64,000 nt of DNA from an uncultured Verrucomicrobiae bacterium (lineage in GTDB: Bacteria; Verrucomicrobiota; Verrucomicrobiia; Limisphaerales; UBA11358), in the NCBI GenBank assembly GCA_963714695.1, contig CAVQPQ010000003.1, forward strand, positions 616,866-680,865, in the 5' to 3' direction. Shown here piece after piece: positions 2,096 to 23,905 of this stretch (the stretch's first letter is position 1; the number at the start of each line of letters is the position of its first letter). The notes below the pieces were generated by a model. It did not search any database, was not told the DNA's origin, and was given only the letters and a program-made list of their open reading frames with translations. The position numbers and the translations under genes are program-made.

Positions 2096-2524
2096 TCATG
2101 CCTGCTCGAAACACGCCGAAGTCACCGTGCCATCGCTGGATGATTGGGAGACTCCCGTTGACAATCTTGGCAATTCGTCGGCACATTTTTGTGACTCGAC
2201 CACAGGCAAATCATCCGCAGATAAATTGAAATTGAGCGAAGCAAACCAATGTTTTATCGGGTGTTCTTTGGCATAAACAATTCCGCATGGCGGGATCGGA
2301 AGTCCAATGAAGCGCCCAAGTTCAGCACAAATAAATTCGTTGGAAATGCAGTATTTTGACTTTTCATTATTTTTGGCCTTTGCCTTCAAAAGGCCATTAT
2401 AAGAGAGATGGTCGCCGTCATTGGCGTCTCTTGATTCAGCAATGGACACTATAGAAAAAAGTCCAGCCATAATGATTGACAGAGCTTTTATCATCGGAAA
2501 TGAAGCGTCAATCATGTTTTTCAT
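2096..2524 (-). CDS. Hypothetical protein in a locally AT-richer patch
   Basis: Internal ATG of the 2096-2665 ORF (MKNMIDASFPMIKAL...). Composition clearly differs from the flanks. No confident family assignment. Confidence 0.3.
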   Translation of the reverse strand: MKNMIDASFPMIKALSIIMAGLFSIVSIAESRDANDGDHLSYNGLLKAKAKNNEKSKYCISNEFICAELGRFIGLPIPPCGIVYAKEHPIKHWFASLNFNLSADDLPVVESQKCADELPRLSTGVSQSSSDGTVTSACFEQA

Positions 2525-2741
2525 GGAAAAACGGCATTTTCGGCCAGCGCGTTGCCAAGCCCTACCAAACCACAAAAAAGCGCAATCTGGCGCACCATGA
2601 CCTTTTATTGGCACTGCGGCACATAAGCTGCTATAGTATGGTTGAGTTGTGGTTGCAACAGGCAATCAGCGAACGATATGTAATCATAATAACCCGCCTG
2701 TTGCTTCGTTCACGCCGCAGCGAAAGAAAGAAGAGCAATAA

Positions 2742-3116
2742 ATGAAAAATACAAAAATCACCCGCAAGGCGGGCTTCACCTTGGTGGAAATCATGATTGT
2801 CGTGGCCATTATCGGCCTGTTGGCGGCAATCGCCATTCCCAACTTCGTGAAGGCTCGTGCCTCCTCGCAGGCCAATGCCTGCATCAACAACCTGCGTCAG
2901 ATTGACGGCGCCGCCCAGCAATGGGCGCTGGAAAGAGGCCAGTCCACCGGAGCTGCCATCAACTATCCCAACGACCTGACGCCTTACATCAAGCTGAACT
3001 CGGCCAGCAGCATTCCTCCGTGTCCGGCCGGCGGCACTTATACTGACCCCACCGTCGGTGGTACGCCGCAGTGCTCATTGGGCACCGGGATTACTCCGCA
3101 ACACGTATTGCCGTAA
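2742..3116 (+). CDS. Prepilin-type N-terminal cleavage/methylation domain protein (type IV pilin / pseudopilin-like)
   Basis: The N-terminus KAGFTLVEIMIVVAIIGLLAAIAIPNF matches the G-F-T-L-x-E class III signal followed by a hydrophobic helix. Confidence 0.85.
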   Translation: MKNTKITRKAGFTLVEIMIVVAIIGLLAAIAIPNFVKARASSQANACINNLRQIDGAAQQWALERGQSTGAAINYPNDLTPYIKLNSASSIPPCPAGGTYTDPTVGGTPQCSLGTGITPQHVLP

Positions 3117-3149
3117 TCAACAGCCGAGTTGGTTCATAGGCTCGAGGCG

Positions 3150-3168
3150 AAGGCTTCGGGCCTTTTTT
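3150..3168 (+). terminator. Possible rho-independent terminator after the pilin-like gene
   Basis: AAGGC-ttcgg-GCCTT stem-loop followed by a T run, 34 nt after the stop codon. The stem is short. Confidence 0.4.
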
Positions 3169-3504
3169 GCTCTCAGGCGTGCAATCTCGAAACTGATTAC
3201 CTATGTCACCGCGTCAATCAGTCTGTCGGTGGTGCGCCAGCCTGTTTGCGACGAGAACGGCGCCGGGTTCGGAGCCCCAACAGCGGAGAATCCAACGGCG
3301 CTTTGGTCGCACCATATAATTCTGCGGAGTGACGAAACTTGGCTGCCGAAATGGAGCGGCAAGCTGGGTGGAGTGGAGCGGTGTGCCGTTCGGTCGCGCG
3401 GGAGATGTCCTGGGGCAATCCGGGTTTTATCGCGCGCGCTGGCAATGGTCGGACAGACGAAGCCAATCAAGCCTGTTTGACCAGTGGAATCTTTCCGGAA
3501 GACT

Positions 3505-4083
3505 CTAGCCCGCAGCCAGTTTCCCCTGCGGAAGCAATCCGGCCTGCATGGCAAAACGCACCAGGCCCGGAACATCATGAATGTTCAGGCAGTTCATCAA
3601 CTTCATGCGATGGTATTCGACGGTCTTGGGGCTGACTTTCAGAATCACGCCGATCTGTTTGGTGTTCTGGCCTTCGGCGATGAGTTGGAGAATCTCGCGC
3701 TGACGCCCCGAAAGCTCATCGAGCGGGCTTTTCCGGTCAGCAATCGCTTGCAGGGGAATTTTTTTGAGGAACCGGGTGGAAATTTCCGGGTTCAGGTGAA
3801 TTTCTTTGTTGACCACACGTTGCAGGATCGTCTCGACCTGCTCCGTCCGCGTCTCGGCCTGCTCGGTTCGGATTTCGGCTTGTTCCGTCCGCGTCTTGGC
3901 CAATTCGGTCCGGGTTTCGGCCTGCTCCGTGCGTGTCTCCGCCGATTCTGCCCGGGTCTTGGCCTGCTCCGTGCGTGTTTCGGCCTGCTCCGTCCGGGCT
4001 TCGGCCTGCTCCGTCCGGGCCTCCGCCCGCTTGATTCGCGTCTGATCGCCGGTCACACCCGCATGTTGATCGTTTTTCCCCAT
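3505..4083 (-). CDS. LuxR/FixJ-type HTH regulator with an N-terminal TEQAE(A/T)R heptad-repeat region in place of a receiver domain
   Basis: The C-terminus LSGRQREILQLIAEGQNTKQIGVILKVSPKTVEYHRMKLMNCL is a LuxR-type HTH. Residues ~20-89 are ~10 consecutive 7-aa repeats. Confidence 0.8.
   Translation of the reverse strand: MGKNDQHAGVTGDQTRIKRAEARTEQAEARTEQAETRTEQAKTRAESAETRTEQAETRTELAKTRTEQAEIRTEQAETRTEQVETILQRVVNKEIHLNPEISTRFLKKIPLQAIADRKSPLDELSGRQREILQLIAEGQNTKQIGVILKVSPKTVEYHRMKLMNCLNIHDVPGLVRFAMQAGLLPQGKLAAG
3817..4030. repeat. 21-bp tandem repeat (~10 units) encoding the heptad array
   Basis: Plus-strand units resemble gtccgggcttcggcctgctcc and follow one another back to back. Confidence 0.85.
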
Positions 4084-4421
4084 TTTGCTGCATTACAAAT
4101 CGCGGTTTAAAGAAATGATTGTCTTGTCCTGCAAGCCGCCCGCCGGCGACTTGCCGGATGACAGCTTATGGAGAATGGCTTCGAATACTTTTAACTTCAC
4201 GGTTGATGTCAGTCCAAAGTTCGCCCAATCCGCAACCAACGCTCCGAAAGCGGGTTTGTTTCAGAGTTGGAAGGTTCATCGCCATTGACCACGAGAATGC
4301 GCTGGAACGGATTCGCCCGGTTTCGGGTTGACCTGATCGCTGTTTGTCGTTCCCAGTTTCAAAAGAAGTATTCACAACTTCGAGCGGGCATCAGGCGGTT
4401 AATGCGTTTGACGGTGACTGG

Positions 4422-4619
4422 CTACCCGATCCGCGGGACGCGGATGTCGCCCGAGTGATTGAGAATGCCAAAGGCAAACAACAGCCACACGATGACGCAA
4501 ATCACCACGACGGCGTTGAGAATTTTTTTAATCTTTCCGTCCATCGGGATATAGGTGTTGACCAGCCAGAGCAGCACGCCAATGACGATCAGAGTGACAG
4601 CGAGGGAAATCAGTGACAT
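4422..4619 (-). CDS. Small two-TM membrane protein (Thivi_2564-like family)
   Basis: 65 aa: MSLISLAVTLIVIGVLLWLVNTYIPMDGKIKKILNAVVVICVIVWLL. A GGAGG lies 7 nt upstream, and motif copy 2 lies 70 nt upstream. Confidence 0.7.
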   Translation of the reverse strand: MSLISLAVTLIVIGVLLWLVNTYIPMDGKIKKILNAVVVICVIVWLLFAFGILNHSGDIRVPRIG

Positions 4620-4688
4620 AGATTGCCTCCAATTTGGGTGAGTGTTTTATTATTCATGCTGAAAGCCTAAGCCGAAGAATGGGCGGGC

Positions 4689-4709
4689 GCTATGGGGTGT
4701 TACCCTACC
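4689..4709 (-). promoter_or_regulatory. Upstream motif copy 2
   Basis: gctatggggtgttaccctacc on the plus strand, 70 nt upstream of the minus-strand start at 4619. Confidence 0.6.
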
Positions 4710-4946
4710 AGTGGATTTTGCGAATTCAATCCCGGCGTGACCGCGACGCCCGCGTGCAACCGGAAAATCAGTTGGAGTTCACGCTTCAGCGTGCCGGCCG
4801 GCGAAAAGGGAAACAAGCTGAAGCTTGATCTCCAACCTCTCCGGCTCACGCTGCCAAACTGAGACCAAGGGTTTTCCCAGTGGCGGCAAGGAACACCCTA
4901 GTCGCAGCCAGACCTCGCAGAGGGTAACGGTAATTATGAACATTAT
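4689..4946. repeat. 258-bp intergenic module, copy B
   Basis: See copy A. The hairpin arms lie at 4770-4788 and 4818-4836. The module ends at the ATG (4936) of the FN3 gene. Confidence 0.85.
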
Positions 4947-5517
4947 TCACGAACGCGGAGCGCAACGCGCAAACAATATTTTGCGCCGGCTTTTCAAAAT
5001 TACCGGACTGACAAAACTTCTGGGAAGTTTCTTGATCCTCGCTGCTTTCAGCCCAACCGTTCAGGCCGGGCCAAGCGTCACTTTGGCCTGGAACCGAAGC
5101 ACGAACGCAATCGTTGCGGGTTACAACGTTTATTATGGTGGAGCCAGCGGCGACTATACCAATGAGATTTCCGCCGGCAATGCGACGAAGGCAACCATTT
5201 CCGGTCTGATTCCGGGAACCACCTACTATTTCGCGGCGACAGCGTACGCGTCTTCGGGTTTGGAAAGCGCTTTTTCAGGCGAAGTGTCGTACACCGTGCC
5301 AATCCTTCCCGGAGTGCAGCTCCGCATTACACCCACCCGGCAGTTCATTCTGACCGTGACCGGCCCGGTCGGCCACACGTATGACATCCAGGCGACGCAG
5401 GATTTCATCACCTGGACAGTCATCGGCACTGTGACGGTGGGAACCAACGGTACGTTGAATTTCACCGACACGAACGCGGCGGGTTTTTCAAAGCGCTTCT
5501 ATCGCACACAAGGATGA
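4936..5517 (+). CDS. Secreted fibronectin type III domain protein
   Basis: An internal ATG sits where the repeat module ends. The signal-like segment is LLGSFLILAAFSPTVQA. The FN3 signature is LAWNRSTNAIVAGYNVYYG...GTTYYFAATAY. Confidence 0.75.
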   Translation: MNIIHERGAQRANNILRRLFKITGLTKLLGSFLILAAFSPTVQAGPSVTLAWNRSTNAIVAGYNVYYGGASGDYTNEISAGNATKATISGLIPGTTYYFAATAYASSGLESAFSGEVSYTVPILPGVQLRITPTRQFILTVTGPVGHTYDIQATQDFITWTVIGTVTVGTNGTLNFTDTNAAGFSKRFYRTQG

Positions 5518-6102
5518 CACTGAAATGACCTCCGAGGCAGGGAACTATTGCTGCGATAGTGTGGCAAGATCGCGAAACCGCTCCGCCGTCTCTGGTCAAG
5601 AATTAACGGAAGTTAAAAATATGTCACTCTATCTCAGCCAAAGATGTTGGGGCCGATCATGCCTGCATCTGGCGTCGGCGGTGCGCGCCGGCCACTGGCG
5701 CTGGCATTTCGCCGGCATCGGACGGGAGATTCATTTCACGAGGATAACCCTGAACGGACCCACCACGGCGGGCGGCTGATTATAAAAACGCCGCCCGCCG
5801 GCGGTGGTATAAACAAAAACGAAAATGATGAAACTCAAAGTACAGTTTGGCCGGGAAAGCCGCTTTAATCAACCGATCCGGTGCATCATCCGACCCCGGG
5901 CGCAGTATTCGCCAGGCATCCGGGTTTTGTCACACGCGCTGGCAAACTGCACCCGAAGCGGGCGCCTTCCCTGTTTATTTCGGTTTTCGGGTTCAACATT
6001 GACCACCCAGCGTCCAGGATCGGCCAGCTTCGCCGTCAACCGGTGTTTGATATTGGCTGCCCAAAACCGGGCTGCCGTGTCGGGGCTGGATTCAGCAAGT
6101 CC

Positions 6103-6129
6103 GGCGTGGGGGAAACGCCACCCGGCGCC
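6103..6129 (+). promoter_or_regulatory. Upstream motif copy 3 (degenerate)
   Basis: ggcgtgggggaaacgccacccggcgcc. The surrounding ~90 nt (6040-6130) align with the reverse complement of 8331-8420 upstream of the other orphan receiver operon. Confidence 0.45.
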
Positions 6130-6163
6130 CGCAAGTTTTGCCGGTTTATTATTTATCTTTCTA

Positions 6164-6594
6164 TGAAAGACAACCCCATCTTGCAAGCGGCAGAGTCGGC
6201 CTGCGTGCCAACTCCGCCCCGCCGCATTCTCCTGGTTGATGACGACATTGACCTCCGCCAGCTTTACACCAATGTGCTGGTCCGTTCCGGTTACCGCGTT
6301 GACACCGCCGAAGATGGCGCATCCGGCTGGAAGGCGCTTAATGCCGGTTGCTACGACCTCCTTATCACCGACAACACCATGCCAAGGGTCACGGGCCTGG
6401 ATCTGATCAAAAAATTGCGTTCCGAAGACATGACGCTGTCGGTCATCCTGGCGTCGGGAACGGCGCCGACGGAAGAGCTGAACCGGTGCCCGTGGCTGAA
6501 ACTTGACGCTGTGCTGCCGAAGCCTTTCTCCATCGGCGAGTTGTTGGAAACGGTGAGAGCAGTCCTGCGCGCCACCGACAGTGCCGCCGGGTAA
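6164..6594 (+). CDS. Single-domain response regulator (CheY-like receiver)
   Basis: RILLVDDDIDLRQ...YDLLITDNTMPRVTGLDLIKKLR...LPKPFS. The start is taken at MKDNPIL, and the longer ORF extension overlaps repeat sequence. Confidence 0.85.
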
Positions 6595-7590: not shown

Positions 7591-7612
7591 TTTCGGGCTC
7601 CGGATTTCTTTA

Positions 7613-8116
7613 TCACAGCCGCAAACCACCGGCTGATGGCTGGCTCCGCCCGTTTGGCAACGGCGCGATTTGCTCGCGGACGCCATCGGGCACATGCAAG
7701 ACCGCTTGCACCGTTTGCAGTAATTGTTCCGGGGAGACGGGTTTTAGCAGCACGCCGGAAAGCTGAAGCCACGGACTCCGGTTTAACTCCTGTGGCGTCA
7801 TTATTCCCGAGGCCAGAATGACCGGCAACGCCAGACGCGCGGCACGCAGCTTCTTCACCAGCTTCAAGCCGGACAATCTCGGCATATCGAGGTCGGTGAT
7901 CAGAAGATCATAGGTGTGAGCCTGGAGAGCTTTCCAGCCGGCGGTGCTGTCTGCAGCGGCGTCCACCCGATAGCCGTGGCGAATCAACACTTCCGCTCCG
8001 ATTTTGCGGATGCCCGTATCATCATCCACCACGAGGATGCGATGGAACCGATGGGTTGTGCCTGGAGTTGATGCGGTGGCGGCCTTGGCGCCGCGGGTTT
8101 TGAGGAGTTTTTTCAT
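7613..8116 (-). CDS. Single-domain response regulator (CheY-like receiver), paralog of 6164-6594
   Basis: RILVVDDDTGIRK...YDLLITDLDMPRLSGLKLVKKLR...LLKPVS. Confidence 0.85.
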   Translation of the reverse strand: MKKLLKTRGAKAATASTPGTTHRFHRILVVDDDTGIRKIGAEVLIRHGYRVDAAADSTAGWKALQAHTYDLLITDLDMPRLSGLKLVKKLRAARLALPVILASGIMTPQELNRSPWLQLSGVLLKPVSPEQLLQTVQAVLHVPDGVREQIAPLPNGRSQPSAGGLRL

Positions 8117-8304
8117 AGGACTGAAAATAAATTGTCGAGACCCGGCTCAAGAATCACAAAGTGATCGTGTCCGCGAAACTTAAGCAGGCGCCCATTGACG
8201 GCGAGCCGCACAATTCCTTCGGCTTTTTGTCTGCCGCAGGCGTCGTAAACAGCCATGATGACTTCACCAAACGTCAGGTATCGTTTCCTGCAATTGGTTT
8301 TCAT
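8113..8304 (-). CDS. Small hypothetical protein translationally coupled to the receiver gene
   Basis: 63 aa starting at MKTNCRKRYLTFGEV. Its stop overlaps the downstream start as ATGA (8113-8116). Motif copy 4 lies 32 nt upstream. Confidence 0.45.
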   Translation of the reverse strand: MKTNCRKRYLTFGEVIMAVYDACGRQKAEGIVRLAVNGRLLKFRGHDHFVILEPGLDNLFSVL

Positions 8305-8335
8305 GGTATAATTGTAAACGGGAAGCCGCGCGGGC

Positions 8336-8358
8336 GCTATGGGGTGTTTACCCCATAT
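8336..8358 (-). promoter_or_regulatory. Upstream motif copy 4 (palindromic form)
   Basis: gctatggggtgtttaccccatat contains the inverted repeat TATGGGGT-gttt-ACCCCATA. Confidence 0.6.
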
Positions 8359-8885
8359 GCCAGACTTGATGAATCCTGCCCCGACACGGCGGGGCGGCTT
8401 TGGGCGACCAACATTGAACATTGGCTGACGGCAACCGAAAATATTCAACACTCAAGACCCAAATCCGCTATCGCGCGAGCAGGCATCCAACATCCAAGTG
8501 ACCGGCGCAAGAATACTTGGAGGTTCGGTGTTGAATGTTGAACCCGAATTCCGAAGCCGGCGAGGACGGGGGACGAGGCCGGGGCGGAGATGACATGAGT
8601 AGTCGGCGGGCGGGCGCAGCAACTGCCTTCTTTCAAGACACAGAACATTTCCCAACCGCTCGTCCATCCCACTTGGCTGCGGCCGGGACGGCCGCACTCC
8701 GCCAAAGCAGAAACAATCAAATGTCCAACGCGCCTTTCACAAAGGAGTTTGGGACCAAGCAGTATAAATTCAACTGTCCCCAATCCCTCTGTCGCATCCG
8801 TTTGTGTCCATATTCAGGACCAGCCCATGTTCAACTCCTTCGGATAATATATATGGTAATAAAGTGAACGCTGTCTCTCATTCCG

Positions 8886-9089
8886 GTGTATGTTCACGAC
8901 ATGACTATGAATGAGAATACACCGGATCCGACGAAGAAAAACTACGGCACCCGGCCGGCCGTGGGCATACCGGTGCAGGTCCAATGCAACGGTTACAAAT
9001 GCATGGCCTTCCTCGACGGTGAGGGCCGATGGGTGGACCTTTTCAGCCGCCAATTTGTGGACCGGGTCCTGGGCGTGGTTCCCGCTTGA
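8886..9089 (+). CDS. Small hypothetical protein
   Basis: 67-aa ORF preceded by an AT-rich stretch (tatatatggtaataaa). No recognisable family. Confidence 0.3.
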   Translation: MYVHDMTMNENTPDPTKKNYGTRPAVGIPVQVQCNGYKCMAFLDGEGRWVDLFSRQFVDRVLGVVPA

Positions 9090-9217
9090 TGGAACTGACA
9101 GATTCCTGGTTCAACCCTGTGGCGCAAGGCGTGTCGGTTTTTGTCTTGCGGCGCACCGGACGGATTTGACGTCAAGCCATCAAAGCGCAAGCGGAAGCGC
9201 GACGGTTTTTGACATGA

Positions 9218-10846
9218 TCAGTTTCCGGGGGTCTTCGCCCCGTCTGGGATTTTCGTGAAGCCAAAGGTTTTCTGCGCAGGTTCCGGTTTCGGAGCGCCCG
9301 GTTGATCCAGCACTTCCCGCACTTTGCGGGCGAGAGTCGCCGGCGTATAAGGTTTGGACAGGAACTCGGCTCCGGTCTCCAGCATTCCGTGATGCGCAAT
9401 GGTGGCGTCCGTGTATCCTGAAGTGAAGATGACTTTGATGCCGGGGTAGGTTGTTTTCAGCCACTCCGCCATCACTTTGCCGCCCATCAGCGGCATGATG
9501 ACATCGGTGACCACCAGACGAATCGGCGCTCCCTTGTGTTCCCGCGCAACGCGCAACGCATCCTGGCCGTTCGAGGCCGGCAGCACTTCATAACCCTGTG
9601 CGTTCAATGCCCGGCAAGTCAGATGCCTCAAGGGTGGCTCGTCTTCCACGACCAACAGCGTTTCGGTTCCGCGCGGAACCGGCCCGGCTTTGACAGGCTG
9701 CGCCGCGGCATCCAGCGGCTGCTCGACCCGCGGAAAATAAATCTTGAAGGTCGTGCCTCGGCCAATCTCGCTGTAAATGCCGATATGACCGCCGGATTGT
9801 TGGACGATGGTCTGGCAGGTCACCAGACCCAAACCGGTGCCCTTGCCCAATGGCTTCGTCGTGAAAAACGCCTGAAACAAGTGCGCTTTGACTCCCTCAG
9901 TCAAGCCGGTTCCCGTGTCACTGACACTGAGCATCACGTGGTCGCCGGGCATGGCGCCGGGGTGGGTGCGCGTGTAGTTTTCATCAAGCGTGACCTGGTT
10001 GGTGGCAATGGTGAGCTTGCCGCCGTTGGGCATGGCATCGCGGGCATTGACGACCAGATTCATCAGCACCTGCCCCACGTGCCCGGAGTCGGCCTTGATC
10101 CGTCCGGTTTGTTTGCCGGGAACAATCGTCATTTCGATGTTCTCGCCAATGAGCCGCCGCAGCATTTTGTCCAGGCCTTTCACCACGTTATTGAGGTCGA
10201 GCACGACGGGTTGCACCGTTTGTTTGCGGCCGAAGATAAGCAGTTGCTGCGTCAACCCGGCGGCACGCTCCGTGGCGTGCCGGATCTCCTCGGTATGTTC
10301 CCGCAGCGGGCTGTCCGGCCCAAGCCCGGACATGATCAAGCCGTTGTTCCCCATGATGACCCCGAGGATGTTGTTAAAGTCATGAGCCACGCCGGCGGCG
10401 AGCTGGCCGATCACTTCCATTTTTTGCGCGCTGATAAACTGCCCCTCCAGCCGTTTGTATTCGGCGCGCGTTTCGACTTCCAGCATGGCGCGGCGCACCG
10501 CCGGAGCGAGCCGGGCGAGGCATTCCTTCAGGACATAATCCGTCGCCCCGCTCTTGAGCGAATCAACGGCCCGTTCCTCGCCCAGCGTCCCGGACACCAT
10601 GATGACCGGCAGGTCCGGCCACCGGGCGCGCGCGATTTTCAACGCGGACAACCCGTCAAACGCGGGGAGCGTGAAATCCGAAAGGATCAGGTCCATGCCG
10701 CCGCGTTCGAGCGCCGCCACAAAACCATCGCGGCTTTGCACGCAGGTGGTCGCGCAAGTGATGCCATCGGCTTCCAGGGTGGCTTGAACGAGCGCGGCAT
10801 CGTTGGGATCGTCCTCCAGGTGCAGGATGTGGAGCGGGGATTTCAT
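9218..10846 (-). CDS. Hybrid histidine kinase (REC-HisKA-HATPase_c-REC)
   Basis: N-terminal receiver ILHLEDDPND...LILSDFTLPAFDG. H-box GVAHDFNNIL. ATPase segments DTGTGL and GLGL. C-terminal receiver LLVVEDEPP...VVTDVIMP. Confidence 0.9.
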   Translation of the reverse strand: MKSPLHILHLEDDPNDAALVQATLEADGITCATTCVQSRDGFVAALERGGMDLILSDFTLPAFDGLSALKIARARWPDLPVIMVSGTLGEERAVDSLKSGATDYVLKECLARLAPAVRRAMLEVETRAEYKRLEGQFISAQKMEVIGQLAAGVAHDFNNILGVIMGNNGLIMSGLGPDSPLREHTEEIRHATERAAGLTQQLLIFGRKQTVQPVVLDLNNVVKGLDKMLRRLIGENIEMTIVPGKQTGRIKADSGHVGQVLMNLVVNARDAMPNGGKLTIATNQVTLDENYTRTHPGAMPGDHVMLSVSDTGTGLTEGVKAHLFQAFFTTKPLGKGTGLGLVTCQTIVQQSGGHIGIYSEIGRGTTFKIYFPRVEQPLDAAAQPVKAGPVPRGTETLLVVEDEPPLRHLTCRALNAQGYEVLPASNGQDALRVAREHKGAPIRLVVTDVIMPLMGGKVMAEWLKTTYPGIKVIFTSGYTDATIAHHGMLETGAEFLSKPYTPATLARKVREVLDQPGAPKPEPAQKTFGFTKIPDGAKTPGN

Positions 10847-13254: not shown

Positions 13255-13330
13255 TCGACGGAATCAGCCCGCCCGGCGGGTTCCCGGAAAGCAGTCCTGA
13301 GAATGTGGCGGCTGATCATACCCGGTTGTT

Positions 13331-14893
13331 TCATGAAGGCGCTGTTTCCGGCGTGGCATCCAGCATCTCGCGCACTTTGCGGGCCAGCGTTGCGGGCGCA
13401 TACGGCTTGGGCAGAAACGCAACTTCTGTTTCAAGCTTGCCGCGGCGGGTCATGGCGTCTTCCGTGTACCCGGACGTGAACAGAATTTTGAGATCGGGAT
13501 AAGTTGTTTTCAGCCATTCCGCCATCACCTTGCCGCCCATCACCGGCATGATGACATCGGTGACCGCCAGACGAATCGGCGCTCCCTTGTGTTCCCGCGC
13601 CACGCGCAACGCATCCTGGCCGTTGTTCGCGCGCAGGACGTGGTAGCCTTGCGCTTCCAACACATCCGCAACCAGATGACGCACGGAAGGCTCGTCTTCC
13701 ACGACCAGCAGCGTTTCCGTCCCGCGCGGAAGCGGCCCGGCGTTGATGGCCTGCGCCGCGGCACCCAAAGGCTGCTCGACCCGCGGAAAATAAACCTTGA
13801 AGGTCGTGCCTTTGCCCACCTCGCTGTAAACGCCAATGTGGCCGCCGGATTGTTGGACGATGGTCTGGCAGGTCGCCAGGCCCAAACCGGTGCCCTTGCC
13901 ACTGGGCTTCGTGGTGAAAAAGGCTTCAAACAAACGCGCTTTGACCTCCCCGGTCATGCCGGTTCCCGTGTCACTGACCGTTAGCATCGCGTAGTCGCCG
14001 GGCTTTGCGCCCGGGTGGGTGTCGCTTTCATCGAGCGTGACCTGGTTGGTGGCAATGGTGAGCTTGCCGCCGTTGGGCATGGCATCGCGGGCATTGACGA
14101 CCAGATTCATCAGCACCTGCCCCACGTACCCGAAGTCGGCCTTGATCCGTCCGGTTTGCCTGCCAGGAACAATCGTCATTTCGATGTTATCACCAATGAG
14201 CCGCCGCAACATTTTGTCCAGGTCTTTCACCGTGTCATTGAGGTCGAGCACAACGGGCTGCACTGTTTGTTTGCGGCTGAAGATGAGCAGTTGCTGCGTC
14301 AGCCCGGCGGCACGCTTCGACGCGTGCCGGATCTCCTCGGTATATTCCCGCAGCGGACCGTCCGGCCCAAGCCTGGACATGATCATGTCGCTGTAACCCA
14401 TGATGACCCCGAGGATGTTGTTGAAGTCATGGGCCACGCCGCTGGCGAGCTGGCCGACCACTTCCATTTTTTGCGCGCTGATAAACTGCCCCTCCAGCCG
14501 CCTGTGTTCGGCGCGCGTCTCGACTTCCTGCATGGCGCGGCGCACCGCGGGGACGAGACGTGAGAGATGTGTTTTCAGGACATAATCCGTCGCGCCGGTC
14601 TTGAGCGAATCAACGGCCCGCTCCTCGCCCAGCGTCCCGGACACCATGATGACCGGCAGGTCCGGCCACCCGGCATGGGCGATTTTCAACGCGGACAACC
14701 CGTCAAACGCGGGCAGCGTGAAATCCGAAAGAATCAGGTCAATGCCGCCGTGTTCGAGCGCCGCCACAAAATCATCGCGGCTTTGCACGCAGGTAATCGC
14801 GCAAGGGATGCCATCGGCTGCCAGGGTGGATTGAACGAGCGCGGCATCGTTGGGATCGTCCTCCAGGTGCAGGATGTGGAGTGGGAATTTCAT
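13331..14893 (-). CDS. Hybrid histidine kinase (REC-HisKA-HATPase_c-REC), close paralog of 9218-10846
   Basis: Colinear with 9218-10846 and identical at most residues by eye (MKFPLHILHLEDDPNDAALVQ...). Confidence 0.9.
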   Translation of the reverse strand: MKFPLHILHLEDDPNDAALVQSTLAADGIPCAITCVQSRDDFVAALEHGGIDLILSDFTLPAFDGLSALKIAHAGWPDLPVIMVSGTLGEERAVDSLKTGATDYVLKTHLSRLVPAVRRAMQEVETRAEHRRLEGQFISAQKMEVVGQLASGVAHDFNNILGVIMGYSDMIMSRLGPDGPLREYTEEIRHASKRAAGLTQQLLIFSRKQTVQPVVLDLNDTVKDLDKMLRRLIGDNIEMTIVPGRQTGRIKADFGYVGQVLMNLVVNARDAMPNGGKLTIATNQVTLDESDTHPGAKPGDYAMLTVSDTGTGMTGEVKARLFEAFFTTKPSGKGTGLGLATCQTIVQQSGGHIGVYSEVGKGTTFKVYFPRVEQPLGAAAQAINAGPLPRGTETLLVVEDEPSVRHLVADVLEAQGYHVLRANNGQDALRVAREHKGAPIRLAVTDVIMPVMGGKVMAEWLKTTYPDLKILFTSGYTEDAMTRRGKLETEVAFLPKPYAPATLARKVREMLDATPETAPS

Positions 14894-14939
14894 TTTTTCT
14901 CCTTGATGTTTTCAATGGGTGATGTGATGTGAAACAGGA

Positions 14940-15882: not shown

Positions 15883-15933
15883 TCAGACCTCCGTTTTTGA
15901 GTCGGGCGCAAATTGAGGACACTACCGCCATTT

Positions 15934-16181: not shown

Positions 16182-17822
16182 TCATGCCTCGATGGGTTGT
16201 TTGGGGATGGAAAAGTAAAACGTCGCGCCGCCGTCCACCACGCCTTCCGCCCAGGTCCGGCCGCCGTGCCGGTGAATGATGCGCTGGACGTTCGCCAGGC
16301 CGATGCCCGTGCCCTCAAACTGGTCCTGGCTGTGCAGGCGTTGGAACACGCCGAACAGTTTCCCGGCATATTGCGGATCGAAACCCACGCCGTTGTCGCG
16401 GATGAAGAAAACCGGGGTGTTGGAGTCCTGGAGTTTTGGCGTATTGGAATTTTGGGTTGAAGCCACCGCTCCAGTACTGCACTTCTCCATTGCTCCAATC
16501 TCAATCTTTGCCCCGGCGCGGGCGCCCTCCGGGGCGTAGGCCTCTCCTGGCCGGAGGCCGGTGAACTTCACCGCATTGGAAATCAGATTGACCAGCGCCA
16601 TTCGCAGCAGGGCGCGGTCGGCCCGCACCGCCGGCAGCGGATGGATATTCCACGTGATATTCCGCCCTTTTGTCTCCGCCTTGAAATCGCCCAGGGTCTC
16701 CCGGACCAGTTCGTCGAGATGAATTTCCGTCTTGTGCAATGCCGCCCGCCCGACGCGCGAGAAATCCAGCAGGTCGTCAATCAAATCCCCCATCCGTTTG
16801 GCCGACTGGGAAATAATTGTCAGGTGCCGGAGACTTTCTTCTGAAAGCGCCGGCCCGGCGTCTTTTTGCAGCAGGTCCACGAAGCCCATGACATGGCGCA
16901 GCGGCGCGCGCAAATCGTGGGAGACGGAATAACTGAACGCCTCCAATTCCTCATTGGCGGCTTGCAGTTGCGCCGTGCGTTCGACAACCCGCCGCTCCAG
17001 TTCCGCATTAAGAACGCGGACTTGTCCCTCCGCCTGTTTGCGCTCCGTGATGTCACGCGCCACTTTCGATGCGCCGATGACTTTGCCGCTGGCATCCTTG
17101 ATCGGTGATGCCGTGACCGAGACATCAATCAGCCGTCCGTCCTTGGTTTGCCGCCGCGTCTCAAAGTGCTCCACACTTTCGCCGCGCTTGATCTTCTCCA
17201 GAATTTGATTTTCCTCATCGTGCCGGTCGGCGGGAATCAGCCGCAGGATGGAAGCCCCCAGCATCTCGCTGGCGGCATGGCCAAAAATCTTTTCCGCGCC
17301 TTTATTCCAACTGTTGATGATGCCTTTCAGGTCTTTGCCGATGATGGCGTCGTCCGAAAACTCGACGATGGCCGCCATCCGGATTGAAACGGTTTCCGCC
17401 AGCTTGCGCACCGTGATGTCACGAATGTTGCATTGAATTACTTTTTTGTTGCCGGCTTGATAGACGTTGCTGACAAACTCCACGGCAATCTTGCGGCCAT
17501 CCTTCGTTTCCAGCGGCAGGTCTTCATAGCGCACATACCTGTCCCGTTGGAGCCGCTCCAGCATGGCTTGATTGGACACAATGTCCTTGAACGGACTCAG
17601 CTCGCCGACGGTTTTGCCAACCATTTCACCGCGGGAAAATCCCAATAGCTTGACCAGGAAAGGGTTCACGTCGTTGATGCGCCCCGTGTCAACGTCCAAA
17701 ATCAGGATGCCATCCCTCGCCGCTTCAAACAGCCGGCGATAACTGAGTTCGGAGGCGCGGAGCGCCCGCTCCATTCGCGCCTCGTTACCGATTATGTTCT
17801 CGTTATGATGATCCTCCTTCAC
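16182..17822 (-). CDS. PAS/PAC sensor histidine kinase (2 PAS domains, HisKA, HATPase_c carrying an insertion)
   Basis: GTG start. PAS segments SYRRLFEAARDGILILD and AIVEFSDDAIIGKD. H-box SVSHDLRAPL. ATPase GTGIGLANV. Confidence 0.9.
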   Translation of the reverse strand: MKEDHHNENIIGNEARMERALRASELSYRRLFEAARDGILILDVDTGRINDVNPFLVKLLGFSRGEMVGKTVGELSPFKDIVSNQAMLERLQRDRYVRYEDLPLETKDGRKIAVEFVSNVYQAGNKKVIQCNIRDITVRKLAETVSIRMAAIVEFSDDAIIGKDLKGIINSWNKGAEKIFGHAASEMLGASILRLIPADRHDEENQILEKIKRGESVEHFETRRQTKDGRLIDVSVTASPIKDASGKVIGASKVARDITERKQAEGQVRVLNAELERRVVERTAQLQAANEELEAFSYSVSHDLRAPLRHVMGFVDLLQKDAGPALSEESLRHLTIISQSAKRMGDLIDDLLDFSRVGRAALHKTEIHLDELVRETLGDFKAETKGRNITWNIHPLPAVRADRALLRMALVNLISNAVKFTGLRPGEAYAPEGARAGAKIEIGAMEKCSTGAVASTQNSNTPKLQDSNTPVFFIRDNGVGFDPQYAGKLFGVFQRLHSQDQFEGTGIGLANVQRIIHRHGGRTWAEGVVDGGATFYFSIPKQPIEA

Positions 17823-18094: not shown

Positions 18095-18652
18095 TCATTC
18101 CGGCGGATGGTTTCCCGGCGCGCGTGCCCAGGCCGGTTGTTTCGCAAATGGGGCAATCAAGTTCCGGATGGAGTCAATGGGGTCATCAAGTTTCGGATAG
18201 AGCTTGTGGAAGCACTCGGGACAAATGCCGTGGGAGAAGGTGGCCTCGGAATGGCTCGCAATGTACGCCTCGACTTGCTTCCAATAACCCCGGTCATCCC
18301 GGATTTTTTTGCAGTTGGCACAAATCGGCAACAGGCCGCTCAACTGTTTCACCCGGGCCAGGGCCATTTGCAGTTCCGAGATCAAACGCTCCAGCTCGAT
18401 CTGATGGACTTCCAATTCGTGGACGTGCCGCGCCGTGTCGGCTGCGGATTGCGGAGTTTGTTGTTGCGCTTGGAGCCAATCTTCGGCGTGGCGGCGCAGT
18501 TCCCGCCCCGGGTTTATCGAAGGGTCGGCGTTGTTCGCGGGCCGGTCCGGTTTCTTTTTCATGGCTTGGCTTGTTTTTGTGGCGGCGGCCATCCTTGGCT
18601 GCCGTATCATCCGGCTTCCAGCCGGGTGTTTATGCAAGAGGCATTCTTTCAT
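18095..18652 (-). CDS. Coiled-coil protein with a C-terminal Cys-rich CxxC...H...CxxC module
   Basis: LLPICANCKKIRDDRGYWKQVEAYIASHSEATFSHGICPECFHKLY. An ATG at 18652 overlaps the kinase stop codon as ATGA. Alternative starts lie at 18658, 18610 and 18562. Confidence 0.6.
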   Translation of the reverse strand: MKECLLHKHPAGSRMIRQPRMAAATKTSQAMKKKPDRPANNADPSINPGRELRRHAEDWLQAQQQTPQSAADTARHVHELEVHQIELERLISELQMALARVKQLSGLLPICANCKKIRDDRGYWKQVEAYIASHSEATFSHGICPECFHKLYPKLDDPIDSIRNLIAPFAKQPAWARAPGNHPPE

Positions 18653-20598
18653 GCGCACCTCGTCTCTTCGTTTGCTGGTGTCCCGGGCGGCAGGATGCCG
18701 CCGGATACGGCAGGCAAGATGCCCGCCGCTACCGCCGCAGGCAAAGTGAACAGGAACTTCGCGCCCTGCCCGGGACCGTCGGATTCCACCCAGATTCGTC
18801 CCTCGTACAACTCCACGATGCGTTTGATCAGCGCCAGCCCCATGCCCATGCCTTCCGTCTTGGGGTTGAGCTTTTCAAACAAGCCGAACACCTTGTCATG
18901 GTAGCGCGGATCTATGCCCGCGCCGTTGTCGCGCACAAAAAACACCGTCTCCGCTCCACGCGGCTCGACGCCAATCTCGACGCGCGGCTTGGGCTGGTCC
19001 CCCACGAACTTGCAGGCGTTCTCCACCAGGTTCTGCCAGATTTCCACCAGACGCGGCCGGTCGCCTTCCAAAACCACGGCGGCATCAGCCACCTGCACCT
19101 CCGCGCTGCTGATGATGATGCGTCCGGCCACCAGCCCGACGGCCTCCCGCGCCAGTTCTTGGAAGGTGACCCGCGCGGGCGGATTGGACTGGCGGCCCAC
19201 GCGCACCAGATTCAGCAGTTCATCGAGCAACTGGCCCATTTTGTCCGCCGCGTTGTGCATGAAGATTAAATCCTGCTTGACCCGTTCCGTGTCCGGCCCG
19301 GCCATATCCTCCTCCAGATAGCCGAGAAAGGTCTTTATCGTCACCAACGGAATTTTCAGGTCATGGGATACGGTGTAGGTGAAGCGTTCCAGCTCGGTGT
19401 TCTTCTCCATCAACCCCCTTTCCTGGCGTTTGCGCTCCGTGATGTCGCGAAAAGTCCAGATCCTTCCGAAATCCTTTCCGGCCTTGTCCCGGACGGGCGA
19501 CGAGTAACGGTCCAGGACCGTTTCATCAATCAAATCAATTTCATCCCGGCTGACTTCGTCGGGATGGGAATAAAGATAGGCGATTTTCCCGGCAAACTCC
19601 CCGGGATTTTTCGCCCGGCTCGTGACAAATCGAACCTGCGCGGCATCATCCTGGTTCCCGGCAAGATGCGGGGGAATTTTCCACAGTTCGTCCAGGCGCT
19701 GGTTCCGGAGGATTTGCTTTCCCTGATTGTCCACCACCAAAATCCCGTCCAGCGCCGAGTCCACTTGCGCTTCCAGCAAAGCGGTTTTCCAGCGTAATTC
19801 TTCCTCCGCCCGTTTGCGCTCCGTGATGTCACGCGCCACTTTCGATACGCCGATGACTTTGCCGCTGGCATCCTTGATCGGTGATACCGTGACCGAGACA
19901 TCAATCAGCCGTCCGTCCTTGGTCTGCCGCACCGTCTCAAAGTGCTCCACATTTTCGCCGCGCCTGATCTTCTCCAGAATTTGATTTTCCTCATCGTGCC
20001 GGTCGGCGGGAATCAGCCGCAGGATGGAAGCCCCCACCATCTCGCTGGCGGCATGGCCGAAAATCTTTTCCGCGCCTTTATTCCAACTGTTGATGATGCC
20101 GTTCAGGTCTTTGCCGATGATGGCGTCGTCTGAAGATTCGATGATCTCAGCCAGCCGGATCGTCGTTTGCTCTGCCTCTTTGCGCACCGTGATGTCGCGG
20201 ATGTTGCATTGAATTACTTTTTTGTTGCCGGCTTGATAGACGTTGCTGACAAACTCCACGGCAATCTTGCGGCCATCCTTCGTTTCCAGCGGCAGGTCTT
20301 CATAGCGCACATACCTGTCCCGTTGGAGCCGCTCCAGCATGGCTTGATTGGACACAATGTCCTTGAACGGACTCAGCTCGCCGACGGTTTTGCCAACCAT
20401 TTCACCGCGGGAAAATCCCAATAGCTTGACCAGGAAAGGGTTCACGTCGTTGATGCGCCCCGTGTCAACGTCCAAAATCAGGATGCCATCCCTCGCCGCT
20501 TCAAACAGCCGGCGATAACTAAGTTCGGAGGCGCGGAGCGCCTGCTCCGTTCGCGCCTCGTTACCGATTATGTTCTCGTTATGATGATCCTCCTTCAC
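18649..20598 (-). CDS. PAS/PAC sensor histidine kinase (3 PAS domains, HisKA, HATPase_c)
   Basis: 649 aa. The first ~270 aa are nearly identical to those of 16182-17822. H-box TVSHDLKIPL. ATPase MGMGLALIK. Confidence 0.9.
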   Translation of the reverse strand: MKEDHHNENIIGNEARTEQALRASELSYRRLFEAARDGILILDVDTGRINDVNPFLVKLLGFSRGEMVGKTVGELSPFKDIVSNQAMLERLQRDRYVRYEDLPLETKDGRKIAVEFVSNVYQAGNKKVIQCNIRDITVRKEAEQTTIRLAEIIESSDDAIIGKDLNGIINSWNKGAEKIFGHAASEMVGASILRLIPADRHDEENQILEKIRRGENVEHFETVRQTKDGRLIDVSVTVSPIKDASGKVIGVSKVARDITERKRAEEELRWKTALLEAQVDSALDGILVVDNQGKQILRNQRLDELWKIPPHLAGNQDDAAQVRFVTSRAKNPGEFAGKIAYLYSHPDEVSRDEIDLIDETVLDRYSSPVRDKAGKDFGRIWTFRDITERKRQERGLMEKNTELERFTYTVSHDLKIPLVTIKTFLGYLEEDMAGPDTERVKQDLIFMHNAADKMGQLLDELLNLVRVGRQSNPPARVTFQELAREAVGLVAGRIIISSAEVQVADAAVVLEGDRPRLVEIWQNLVENACKFVGDQPKPRVEIGVEPRGAETVFFVRDNGAGIDPRYHDKVFGLFEKLNPKTEGMGMGLALIKRIVELYEGRIWVESDGPGQGAKFLFTLPAAVAAGILPAVSGGILPPGTPANEETRCA

Positions 20599-20703: not shown

Positions 20704-20754
20704 TGGATGGTTGTGAATCCAGCCGCGACCCGGCCCGGAGGTAACGGCGGCCAT

Positions 20755-21205: not shown

Positions 21206-21883
21206 CTAAACAATGGTCAACTGGACGCTGTTCTCAATGATTCCCTCGCTGATGGCGTAGCGGGTGAGTCCGGCGGTGTCGTGGACGTCGAGCTTGCTCA
21301 TGACCTTCTCGCGATGTTTCTCGACGGTCTTGATGCTGATGCCCAATTCCGCGGCCGTTTCCTTGTTGGCCTTGCCTTCGGCAATCAGTTGGAGCACCTC
21401 CATCTCGCGCGAGGTCAACCGGGCGGCTTTCTGGTTGAGCCGTCCCGCGCGGTCAGGCGATTTCGGGTTGAGACGATCAAGACGTTTGGCAACCATGGGG
21501 CCGTAAAACGTTTTTCCTTTTTGGACTTCCCGGATCGCATCGCACACCACGTGAGAAGAGTTTTGTTTGAGCAGAAATCCCATGGCGCCGGACTCGGTTG
21601 CGTTTTTGACATACGCGTCATCACTGTGCGCGGAAAGAATGACCACTTTGGTGGCAGGGACGGCTTTGAGCGCCTGGCGGGTGGCTTCCAAACCATTGAG
21701 CAGCGGCATGGCGATATCCATCAGCACCACGGCGGGACGAAGTTTTTTGACCAGGGCGACCGCCTGACGGCCGTCTTGCGCCTCGCCGACCACGTGAATA
21801 TCTTTTTCCAGCTCCAGCATCTTGCGAAATCCCTCGCGCACAATCGTATGGTCTTCTGCCAGCAGGACGGTGATTTTTTTCAT
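21206..21883 (-). CDS. NarL/FixJ-family response regulator (REC plus LuxR HTH)
   Basis: ITVLLAEDHTIVREG...VVLMDIAMPLLNG and LTSREMEVLQLIAEGKANKETAAELGISIKTVEKHR. Confidence 0.9.
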   Translation of the reverse strand: MKKITVLLAEDHTIVREGFRKMLELEKDIHVVGEAQDGRQAVALVKKLRPAVVLMDIAMPLLNGLEATRQALKAVPATKVVILSAHSDDAYVKNATESGAMGFLLKQNSSHVVCDAIREVQKGKTFYGPMVAKRLDRLNPKSPDRAGRLNQKAARLTSREMEVLQLIAEGKANKETAAELGISIKTVEKHREKVMSKLDVHDTAGLTRYAISEGIIENSVQLTIV

Positions 21884-22023: not shown

Positions 22024-23178
22024 TCAGCGGGTTTTAGCCCCCTCCGCGCGGCCATTGCCGGGCGGAATTTGCGCAAAAATGGTCGTGCCTTTGCCGGGTG
22101 CGGATTCGACAGTGAATTTGCCGCCGACCATCTCCAATCGTTCCCTCATCCCGAGCAGCCCGAGGCGTTTGCCGCCATTGGCGTGCAAGGTGCGTTCCAC
22201 GTTAAAGGATTTGCCGTCGTCTTTGATTTTCAGGCCAATGCCACCCGGCAGTTTCTGGATGGTCACTTCCACCCGGCTGGCCCGGGCATGGCGGGCCACA
22301 TTGGTGAGCGCCTCCTGGGCGACGCGAAAGAGCACCGTTCGTTTGGCCGCGTCCAATCGTTCCACCGCCGCGAAGGCCGTCAAATGAACACGCACGCCCG
22401 TCCGCGCGGTAAAGCTTTTCATGAACGAATGCAGGGCGGGAATCAACCCCAGGTCGTCCAGCACCGTCGGGCGCAGTTCCCGGGCGAACCGGTGCACGAT
22501 GTCCACCGATTTTTCCACGAGCCGCTGGGTGCTGGAGATTTTTTTCTGGAGGCCCTTGTGGTTGAGCGTGGATTCGTTTTTCAAGGAAGCCAGCCGGATA
22601 TTGATGCCTGTCAAGGTCTGGGCGATTTGATCATGCAGTTCGCGGCTGATCATCTTGCGCTCTTCCTCCTGGGCCGACAGCAGCTGGCGGGACAGCAGCC
22701 GCAATTGTTCCTGCATGTGCCGCGACTGCTCCAGCAACTGGCTGTAGTGTTGCTCGCTCTTTCGGAGGGACTCCTCCACCAATTTGCGCTGGAGAATCTC
22801 CCGTTGCAAGTGCCGGTTTGAGGCGATCAGATCCAAGCTGCGCTGGATGAGCGACTGATTTAGTTGTACCAGTTGGTCATTGTCCTCCCGGGCCGCGCGA
22901 TGCGTTTTCTCGATGGGAGTAATGGCCTCGGCAAAAAAAGTCCCCGCCCGCCGGATCATCCGTTTCCGGGTGCCGGGCGAATGGCCCGGCAATATCAGGG
23001 TGGTCAGCGCCTGCTCATGGAACCGGGCGAGATCCAGCGTCTCCAAACCCAGGTCCATGGCCCGGCGTCCCAGCCCCTGCGCCGTCCCGCGCGGCGGGTT
23101 CGCCTGTGGACCTTCTTTCAGGTGTTTGCGCAGCGCCGCGACATATCGTTGCGCCAGCCCGTTTAGTTTACGTGCCAT
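22024..23178 (-). CDS. Sensor histidine kinase, HisKA_3 (NarX/DegS-like) plus HATPase_c
   Basis: H-box ISRELHDQIAQTL. ATPase KDDGKSF...GLLGMRERLEMVGG. The start at 23178 is chosen by alignment with the upstream paralog. A GTG at 23220 is an alternative. Confidence 0.85.
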   Translation of the reverse strand: MARKLNGLAQRYVAALRKHLKEGPQANPPRGTAQGLGRRAMDLGLETLDLARFHEQALTTLILPGHSPGTRKRMIRRAGTFFAEAITPIEKTHRAAREDNDQLVQLNQSLIQRSLDLIASNRHLQREILQRKLVEESLRKSEQHYSQLLEQSRHMQEQLRLLSRQLLSAQEEERKMISRELHDQIAQTLTGINIRLASLKNESTLNHKGLQKKISSTQRLVEKSVDIVHRFARELRPTVLDDLGLIPALHSFMKSFTARTGVRVHLTAFAAVERLDAAKRTVLFRVAQEALTNVARHARASRVEVTIQKLPGGIGLKIKDDGKSFNVERTLHANGGKRLGLLGMRERLEMVGGKFTVESAPGKGTTIFAQIPPGNGRAEGAKTR

Positions 23179-23191
23179 TTTAGGTGCTGCT

Positions 23192-23905
23192 TTACGTCCT
23201 ATTGTGAATTCCGAATTCACGAGCGAACCGTTTTATGCTTTTTACTGATTTATCCACCAGTCGCTGCGTGCTGACAATCTCTTTCTTGAGGCCGCTGGCG
23301 TTGATCGCGGCCTCCTTTTTCAACGTCAACAGGCGGACATTGATGCCCAGCAACGTCTGGGCAATCTCATCATGCAGGTCGCGGCTGATTTTCTTTCGTT
23401 TGTCCTCCTGCGCCGACAGAATCTGGTGCGTCAGGCGCTGCAAATGTTTTTGCAGGTGAAGTGATTCTTTCAACAGTTTCCGGGAGTGTTCCCCGCTTTT
23501 CTTGAGGGCCTGCTCCACGGACTTGCGCTGAGCGACGTCCTGCTTCAGGGAACGATGGGAGGCCACCAGGTCCGCCGTGCGCCGGCCCAGCGTCCGGTTC
23601 AGCCGGCTCAAGCGAACGTTGGCCTCGAGTGCGGCGCAATGCGTTTCTTCAATCGGAGTGATTGCCTCGGTAAAAAAAATCTCCGCCCGCCTGATGATCC
23701 CATCTTTGCTGCGGGAGGCTTCCAGCGTGGCGAGCGCGTCCTCGTGAATCCTGGCCACGTCCAATGTTTCCAGATTGAGATCCGCGGCCTGGCGTCCCAG
23801 CGCCAGCGCCGTCCCGCACGGCGGTTTCGCCCGCGAACCTTGCTTCAGGTGTTTTCGCAAGGCTGTCGCATATCGTTGCGACAACGCGGTCAACTTTCGT
23901 TTCAT
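23192..23905 (-). CDS. Kinase paralog retaining the N-terminal domain and HisKA_3 H-box but lacking HATPase_c
   Basis: Colinear with 22024-23178 up to ...VKSIKRFARE, including ISRDLHDEIAQTL. It then diverges (FGIHNRT) and stops 13 nt before the next start codon. Confidence 0.6.
   Translation of the reverse strand: MKRKLTALSQRYATALRKHLKQGSRAKPPCGTALALGRQAADLNLETLDVARIHEDALATLEASRSKDGIIRRAEIFFTEAITPIEETHCAALEANVRLSRLNRTLGRRTADLVASHRSLKQDVAQRKSVEQALKKSGEHSRKLLKESLHLQKHLQRLTHQILSAQEDKRKKISRDLHDEIAQTLLGINVRLLTLKKEAAINASGLKKEIVSTQRLVDKSVKSIKRFAREFGIHNRT

Follow-up and report, generated by a model that had tools for sequence, protein, structure and literature searches.

Among regulators of the LuxR type that lack a receiver domain, GerE is a bare helix-turn-helix (HTH) domain and RcsA carries an N-terminal region of a different kind. 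LuxR-type regulators generally need to dimerise in order to bind DNA, a step governed by phosphorylation, by ligands or in other ways (PMC6237807). QstR and VpsT show that a LuxR-type HTH can act through dimerisation without phosphotransfer, and both keep an N-terminal domain whose phosphorylation site is vestigial (PMC6237807). Here we analysed 64,000 nucleotides (nt) of an uncultured Verrucomicrobiae bacterium (contig CAVQPQ010000003.1, positions 616,866 to 680,865; hereafter the window), focusing on a LuxR-type regulator gene near its start whose product begins with a tandem array of heptads. We found that this protein is a NarL/LuxR-type regulator without a receiver, and that it carries a previously undescribed heptad module which also occurs in kinases. 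It is probably a phosphorylation-independent, coiled-coil-dimerised member of the NarL/FixJ branch of LuxR-type HTH regulators.

The predicted protein matches NCBI MGB7746879.1 exactly, a record that bears the annotation 'LuxR C-terminal-related transcriptional regulator [Verrucomicrobiia bacterium]' (coordinates in Table 1). Its sole Pfam domain above threshold was the GerE/LuxR HTH (PF00196; residues 123-178, 58.6 bits relative to a cut-off of 23.5). Neither a Response_reg nor an autoinducer-binding domain had a Pfam match in the protein, in agreement with the original prediction, made from the letters alone, that the 192-residue LuxR-type HTH protein lacks both a receiver and a ligand-binding domain. 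NCBIfam response-regulator models matched only the C-terminus, at 18-54 bits relative to cut-offs of 162-350, and the SdiA and PA1136 models matched only the HTH, far below cut-off. Sequence matches in the PDB included EsrB (1.9e-09) and FixJ (2.2e-08), as well as the EL222 and VraR effector domains, and the recognition-helix motif reads SPKTVEYHRMKLM. No Pfam or NCBIfam model covered the N-terminus formed by leader and array. Nothing relevant was found in the literature on the motif RTEQAE or on LuxR with coiled coils in Verrucomicrobia, and Rfam had no match at window positions 2500-6000.

To place the gene among its relatives, we scanned species-representative genomes, which yielded 237 loci with relatives, and kept the best 80 for locus comparisons. 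Half of these (40) were without the nine-unit array and encoded NarL-type regulators of 221-263 amino acids (aa) that combine a receiver (REC) with GerE; the exceptions were locus L045 (139 aa, about three units) and loci L061 and L074, where the open reading frames (ORFs) are truncated. The C-terminal half of the window protein (aa 88-192) was 82% identical to aa 122-226 of the REC-type protein at L038 (105 aa, E = 9e-62), and the linker also retains recognisable homology to the response-regulator linker. The join lies inside the segment that aligns with the last receiver-domain helix, where the response regulator reads '…AELETALQQVVHGEIYLSREISTRL' and the window protein '…TEQVETILQRVVNKEIHLNPEISTRF'. 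A gene for an fn3-domain protein adjoins the regulator in 32 of 41 array loci and in 32 of 40 REC-type loci, usually in convergent orientation and just downstream. A histidine kinase gene ends immediately before the regulator in 38 of the 40 REC-type loci and in no array-type locus; upstream of the window gene lie a 69-aa ORF and then a THIVI_2564-family gene, with no kinase. The protein occupies the place that a canonical two-component response regulator takes at the REC-type loci, a relationship that the original prediction had overlooked.

Given the 82% C-terminal identity and the shared fn3 locus, array and receiver are interchangeable N-terminal modules. From a sample picked by similarity to the array-type query, we computed a neighbour-joining tree on the last 108 aa. 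Monophyly of array-type relative to REC-type sequences received 1.2% bootstrap support, and arrays from distant lineages fell outside a moderately supported group (72%) uniting REC-type with Pedosphaera-like array-type sequences. The tree nests REC-type among array-type sequences, with sampling biased to the array-type query. Since array-type sequences are not monophyletic, the N-terminal modules were exchanged at this locus at least once. No genome contributing both an array-type and a REC-type locus was retrieved among the best 80 loci, which come from incomplete bins. We also considered whether the gene arose by fission, leaving a detached receiver nearby, and rejected this because the stand-alone receivers at 7613..8116 and 5881..6594 are only 26-27% identical to the REC-type receiver. 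The NarL-type regulator at 21206..21883 (-), with its kinase at 22024..23220 (-), was likewise rejected as a close paralogue, being only 47.5% identical over a 61-aa HTH alignment.

The array itself consists of nine canonical heptads (in order, AEARTEQ AEARTEQ AETRTEQ AKTRAES AETRTEQ AETRTEL AKTRTEQ AEIRTEQ AETRTEQ) flanked by the degenerate units DQTRIKR and VETILQR. Tandem Repeats Finder reported a 21-base pair (bp) period at 3830-4031 with 9.6 copies, 70% matches and a score of 180, and found no other 21-bp array in the window. The tandem array thus stands as first described, but its roughly ten copies become nine canonical units with degenerate flanks. A higher-order period of 63 bp, or three heptads, spans 3830-4019 and scored above the 21-bp period (205 versus 180); it stems from a Lys that recurs at heptad position 2 every three units (in units 4 and 7), as it also does in kinase arrays. 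Pairwise DNA identity among the nine canonical units was 57-90% with a mean of 74%, so the repeats are not near-perfect as had been claimed, and the only exact in-register repeat of 21 nt in the array DNA is that of units 1-2. Departures from the unit consensus fell 12/10/28 at first, second and third codon positions, a third-position bias which implies that the repeats are old and have been selected at the protein level.

Comparison with three orthologues of the same length gave a ratio of nonsynonymous to synonymous substitution rates (dN/dS) of 0-0.08 in the array at dS 0.23-0.41, relative to 0.05-0.23 in the HTH and about 0.8-1.2 in the linker (aa 83-120). The heptad array is therefore the most constrained part of the protein. 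The low ratio, together with more than 100 full-length orthologues that keep leader and array in frame, indicates that the array is translated in this frame. Unit-specific variants, namely K at position 2 of units 4 and 7, S47, L61 and I71, keep the same order across genera. In the orthologue profile, heptad positions 1 and 4 were invariant (A 100% and R 100%). Position 2 was E in 77% and K in 22% (99% together), position 5 was T in 88% and A in 10% (98% together), and position 6 was E in 97%. Positions 3 (T 67%, A 18%, I 11%) and 7 (Q 71%, L 14%, S 8%) completed the unit.

Searching with the protein sequence recovered more than 100 full-length orthologues with identities of 64-99%; nearly all come from Verrucomicrobiota metagenome bins and are unnamed or labelled 'CsgD family' regulators. 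The closest relatives originate from peat and soil. The search for other HTH proteins with this repeat, proposed along with the original prediction, was therefore productive, and it extended to kinases with PAS domains that are headed by the same array. The bins that supplied the best 80 of the 237 loci bore the names Pedosphaera, Limisphaerales, subdivision 3, Luteolibacter and Akkermansiaceae, along with a small number that are implausible. The gene evidently belongs to a large uncharacterised Verrucomicrobiota family. Some bins carrying a locus of Verrucomicrobiota type were labelled Bifidobacteriaceae, Solirubrobacteraceae, Sulfotelmatobacter, Acidoferrum or Limnocylindrales (e.g., L018, L026, L033, L004, L040 and L075), which probably reflects mislabelling or mis-binning. 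Giant predicted proteins of 2,854-7,240 aa (P0130, P0137, P0153, P0164, P0187 and P0199) had 6-11 stretches matching the window protein, best in the linker and HTH; they may be multi-HTH proteins, or artefacts of gene calling or assembly.

Among 120 orthologues, unit number was always whole: 7 units in one protein, 8 in 29, 9 in 69, 10 in 17, 11 in three and 12 in one. Nine units were thus the mode (58%). Changes in unit number were confined to the first unit or two plus one site near the 3' end. Such slippage of 21-bp units could rapidly alter protein length and so diversify regulation within populations, as at contingency loci. Consistent with this idea, 109 of 218 pairs at least 93% identical over the 100 aa after the array differed in unit number. 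One 90%-identity cluster contained proteins of 185, 192 and 199 aa, reflecting one, two or three copies of the first AEARTEQ unit, and this copy variation coincides with the exact repeat across units 1-2 of the window. However, mean unit identity is modest, the range is narrow with most orthologues at nine units, variation is limited to the edges, and interior units are positionally conserved across genera. A 21-nt unit is a multiple of three, which leaves the reading frame unshifted and permits no on/off switching, and short-read assembly can miscount repeats. We consider a contingency role the least probable of the explanations weighed here. Expansion and contraction, which had been anticipated, are real (7-12 whole units, with 1-3 copies of the first), but slow, edge-confined and narrow in range, amounting to drift rather than a contingency switch. 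A hypervariable or phase-variable regulator is contradicted by an array that is the most conserved part of the protein, retains its unit order and is frame-neutral. Very short arrays of about three heptads each were seen at L045 (4959-5378; 139 aa) and in protein P0402 (150 aa); the latter, on a 678-bp contig, may reflect assembly collapse of the repeat.

We then considered what structure the array could adopt. An AlphaFold2 monomer model built with a 38-sequence alignment predicted a single continuous helix over aa 9-95, with predicted local distance difference test (pLDDT) scores of 72-89 for aa 11-70. Residues 96-117 were of low confidence (pLDDT < 50), no helix followed until residue 126, and a four-helix HTH spanned aa 126-180 at pLDDT 81-92. 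A PDB sequence search with the array alone found nothing significant, and over aa 14-92 Pfam coiled-coil models fell below threshold (Tropomyosin 19.4 versus 38.6 bits, Alanine_zipper 18.0 versus 23.1). All arrays are whole multiples of seven residues, leaving heptad periodicity uninterrupted. The sole consistent core stripe places Ala at d and Thr at a, hence Glu at e and Arg at g, and the likely register is d = A, e = E/K, f = T/A/I, g = R, a = T, b = E and c = Q. Heptad positions 1 to 7 above would accordingly correspond to d, e, f, g, a, b and c. In a parallel in-register dimer, g-to-e' pairs per chain would number 6 attractive and 2 repulsive.

The array had also been proposed to be a single alpha-helix, or a molecular ruler, in which case a stiff monomeric rod would set the distance between leader and HTH. 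The predicted monomer is indeed one long helix, and the array is highly charged (27 of 63 residues are E, R or K). However, the 63-aa array holds only 4 attractive and 13 repulsive intrahelical charge pairs at i+3/i+4, whereas an ideal E4K4 helix of the same length holds 104 and 15. This disfavours a single alpha-helix, as does the invariance of Ala and Thr on one stripe. A ruler would tolerate substitutions, yet array dN/dS is close to zero, and the leader to be positioned is short and only moderately conserved. Thus, helicity as first proposed is upheld by the model and a coiled coil fits, but the monomeric spacer is very unlikely, and so is a molecular ruler.

The structure that best fits these data would be a parallel two-stranded coiled coil with an Ala/Thr core and Arg(g)-Glu(e') salt bridges. 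Of the roles first suggested, a dimerisation rod therefore appears to be the best reading of the array. Several observations weigh against it. A two-stranded coil would be only weakly held by a Thr/Ala core, and coiled-coil families in Pfam match only below threshold. The outward b, c and f positions are near-invariant, which exceeds the needs of a plain homodimer rod, and Lys at e in every third unit repels Arg at g. These invariant surface positions and the e-position Lys hint at a partner or a higher-order assembly.

Some of the same features would suit a coil poised near its folding midpoint, such that the balance of monomer and dimer, and with it DNA binding, follows temperature, pH or ionic strength. 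TlpA of Salmonella, a coiled-coil thermosensor repressor, would provide a model. Thr at a and Ala at d make for a small, polar core, stability would rest on Arg-Glu salt bridges, and a unit number held near nine with every position under purifying selection is expected if stability is finely tuned. This reading is purely inferential, and the presence of the same array on kinases with 0-16 units speaks against one tuned stability. By analogy, an environmental sensor is conceivable, though improbable.

In the mechanism that we favour, the receiver domain is replaced by the leader and a predicted nine-heptad AE(T/A)RTEQ helix of about 87 residues. Two arrays would pair as a parallel two-stranded coiled coil through a Thr(a)/Ala(d) core and Arg(g)-Glu(e') salt bridges, tethering two HTH domains via flexible linkers into a constitutive dimer on an inverted-repeat operator. 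The coil would thereby do the job that phosphorylation-driven receiver dimerisation does in the REC-type counterparts. Control could come from expression level, or from the stability or partners of a marginally packed coil, and unit number would drift by whole units at the 5' edge while held near nine. Because the receiver is replaced by a coiled-coil-like rod, the simplest mechanism would be constitutive tethering independent of phosphotransfer.

We used an exhaustive profile-free search to find the array in other proteins. The same array heads kinases with PAS, HisKA and HATPase domains in related Verrucomicrobiota. Among 120 relatives of one such kinase, an array of 2-16 units immediately preceded the PAS N-terminal segment (…TEQAIRASELSYRRLF; …TEQAIRASELSYRRLFEAAKDGI) in 68, and 52 had none; most of these proteins had kinase domains, and some were PAS-only or partial. 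The leader plus array is common to the regulator and to PAS histidine kinases, which had also been overlooked. Histidine kinases are parallel dimers whose N-terminal helices and signalling coils pair in parallel. The position of the array ahead of the PAS N-terminal segment thus supports a parallel coiled coil. Kinase arrays were more dynamic than those of LuxR-type proteins (P0302, P0301, P0321, P0343 and P0219 are among the examples). Some had at least nine identical AEARTEQ units in a row, others reached about 16-18 units, and many had none, which suggests recent amplification.

If the array pairs with a kinase, or with other arrays, the kinase might sequester, release or recruit the regulator without phosphotransfer. 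At locus L003, on the same contig as L017, the array-LuxR gene adjoins an array-PAS-kinase gene. Their N-terminal 104 aa are 80% identical, non-repetitive leader included, and a DNA cassette of about 370 bp with promoter, leader and array is common to both genes at about 85% identity. This cassette begins exactly at a palindromic box (ATGGGGTAAACACCCCATA), upstream of which nothing is shared. The conserved b, c and f positions, and the occurrence of unit variants in the same order in both classes, would also fit a specific interaction surface. However, a general adjacency of array kinase and array LuxR had to be rejected: it was found only at L003/L017, the three other array-kinase loci (L084-L086) had no array-LuxR gene nearby, and other array loci held no second array ORF within about 5 kb. 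Neither of the window's PAS kinases from this family has an array, and many of the related kinases carry only 0-3 units, which rules out an obligatory pairing. We therefore regard partner pairing as unlikely. Slightly more doubtful is the stronger form, in which the array is a portable pairing handle on a 5' cassette with its own promoter box, through which the regulator and PAS kinases recognise one another by hetero-coiled-coil. If true, this would constitute a sensor-to-regulator pathway bypassing His-Asp phosphotransfer, with unit number and unit variants setting partner specificity.

The leaders of PAS histidine kinases, including the two in the window (VKEDHHNENIIGNEAR...; 'GNEARMERALRASEL…', 'GNEARTEQALRASEL…'), are alike by eye to the LuxR leader, and BLASTP between window proteins gave no significant match of the LuxR leader to the kinase leaders. 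The two window kinases are tandem paralogues that barely differ in their first ~100 residues, 5' leaders and promoters; the second has an extra PAS domain.

The box at the start of the L003 cassette belongs to a 14-bp inverted repeat, GGGGT-N4-ACCCC, that occurred at 52 sites in 792 kb of related loci relative to 0.76 expected and was often extended to ATGGGGTAAACACCCCAT. Four window sites are listed in Table 1; others include L003 5961-5974 and 6830-6843, and L007 4944-4957. The box lies upstream of array kinases in L003 and L085, of the array-LuxR gene in 9 of 40 loci, mostly 40-57 bp before the start, and of the fn3 gene in 8 of 64 loci. It resembles an activator site that overlaps the -35 region and might be bound by an HTH dimer. 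We considered it as the operator of the window regulator and rejected it as such. The LuxR and fn3 promoters of the window do not contain it, though it is present in related loci, which again counts against the mechanism proposed above, and its sparse placement at LuxR and fn3 genes means that the box cannot be assigned to this regulator. The fn3 neighbour and the palindromic box are candidate targets only.

Beyond the regulator, the fn3 protein has an N-terminal hydrophobic segment that resembles a signal by eye, and orthologue homology begins near 4936. By tblastn, the THIVI_2564 gene turned up at 16 of the 41 array loci and at 13 of the 40 REC-type loci. The 69-aa ORF was intact with the same stop in L005, L009, L010 and L002, had no Pfam or Rfam match, and is probably a real small protein since its variable columns are biased to the third codon position (8/7/22). 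Further along the window, positions 7600-24000 form a dense signalling island. At 35828-45285 (+) lie four tandem paralogous genes of ~630-745 aa, each with a Spermine_synth domain and each preceded by or starting with a 14-bp-period repeat, CCGGGTTTTGTTTAT (35845, 38324 and 40709, with a related repeat at 43086).

Table 1. Coordinates of the regulator gene, its parts and other features of the window.
Feature	Position	Strand	Remarks
LuxR-type regulator gene, complete coding sequence	3505..4083	-	192 aa; first possible start codon is ATG
N-terminal leader, aa 1-19 (MGKNDQHAGVTGDQTRIKR)	4027..4083	-	conserved in orthologues; dN/dS 0.18-0.45
Nine canonical heptads, aa 20-82	3838..4026	-	Tandem Repeats Finder, heptad profile, dN/dS, predicted helix
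Junction, aa 83-95 (VETILQRVVNKEI)	3799..3837	-	helix continues; aligns with last receiver-domain helix of REC-type relatives (AELETALQQVVHGEIYL)
Linker, aa 96-120, about 25 aa	3724..3798	-	pLDDT < 50 at 96-117; dN/dS about 1 between close orthologues
NarL/FixJ-type GerE (LuxR) four-helix HTH, aa 121-185	3529..3723	-	Pfam, PDB matches, AlphaFold2
Conserved 69-aa small ORF, unannotated	4166..4375	-	in 338-bp spacer between THIVI_2564 and LuxR genes
THIVI_2564-family small membrane protein, 65 aa	4422..4619	-	PF28077; recurrent upstream neighbour
fn3-domain protein	4825..5517	+	Pfam fn3 4.3e-08; most conserved neighbour of the regulator family
Stand-alone receivers in island	7613-8116, 15376-15882
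Hybrid kinases in island	9218-10846, 10843-13254, 13331-14893
PAS kinases, array-less family members	16182..17822, 18649..20598	-
Split or duplicated HisKA_3 kinase with NarL-type regulator in island	21206-23956
Palindromic box sites	8341-8354, 17909-17922, 20685-20698, 24010-24023		upstream of receiver gene, both PAS kinases and HisKA_3 operon; about 22 nt before TATTAT

Current annotation describes these proteins only as 'LuxR C-terminal-related' or 'CsgD family' regulators. The locus offers a natural module swap, with a kinase and REC-HTH protein in some genomes and a heptad-array-HTH protein in others, on almost the same DNA-binding domain. It could therefore serve as a test bed for the view that receiver domains act mainly as switchable dimerisers. 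The AE(T/A)RTEQ array is a strongly selected module reused by PAS histidine kinases. It also combines, in one protein tandem repeat, slow copy-number drift at one edge with a frozen interior.

Compared with known systems, the window protein is closest to NarL/FixJ regulators of REC+GerE type, in particular Verrucomicrobiota proteins of 222-237 aa (e.g., L038, L035 and P0145), which have a linker and HTH 65-82% identical to its own, the same SPKTVEYHRMKLM motif and the same fn3 neighbour. Its HTH matches the solved effector domains of EsrB, FixJ and VraR, and DNA binding as dimers is presumed in both. Unlike them, it has no receiver, no phospho-acceptor Asp and no kinase directly upstream, and its N-terminal 82 residues are instead leader and heptad array. 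Receiver-less regulators such as GerE, RcsA, VpsT, QstR and BrpT share the LuxR-type HTH, with an activity that depends on dimerising without phosphotransfer (PMC6237807 for QstR and VpsT), but none is known to have a tandem heptad array. The autoinducer-binding N-terminal domain of quorum-sensing LuxR receptors is absent from the window protein, as judged by Pfam.

The N-termini of PAS histidine kinases have the same AE(T/A)RTEQ array and a homologous leader, directly before the PAS N-terminal segment. In the window protein, by contrast, the array is fused to a DNA-binding domain rather than to PAS-HisKA-HATPase, and the kinases are far more variable in unit number (0-16). Alanine-zipper (PF11839, OprI) and tropomyosin (PF00261) proteins have a heptad period, small core residues and a charged surface in common with the array; they differ in that the array has a Thr/Ala core, shows no homology to them and matches their Pfam models only below curated cut-offs. 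Single alpha-helix domains have a dense network of opposite charges at i to i+4/i+3 that the array lacks, and contingency loci have near-identical, frame-shifting repeats, in contrast to the diverged, frame-neutral units of this regulator.

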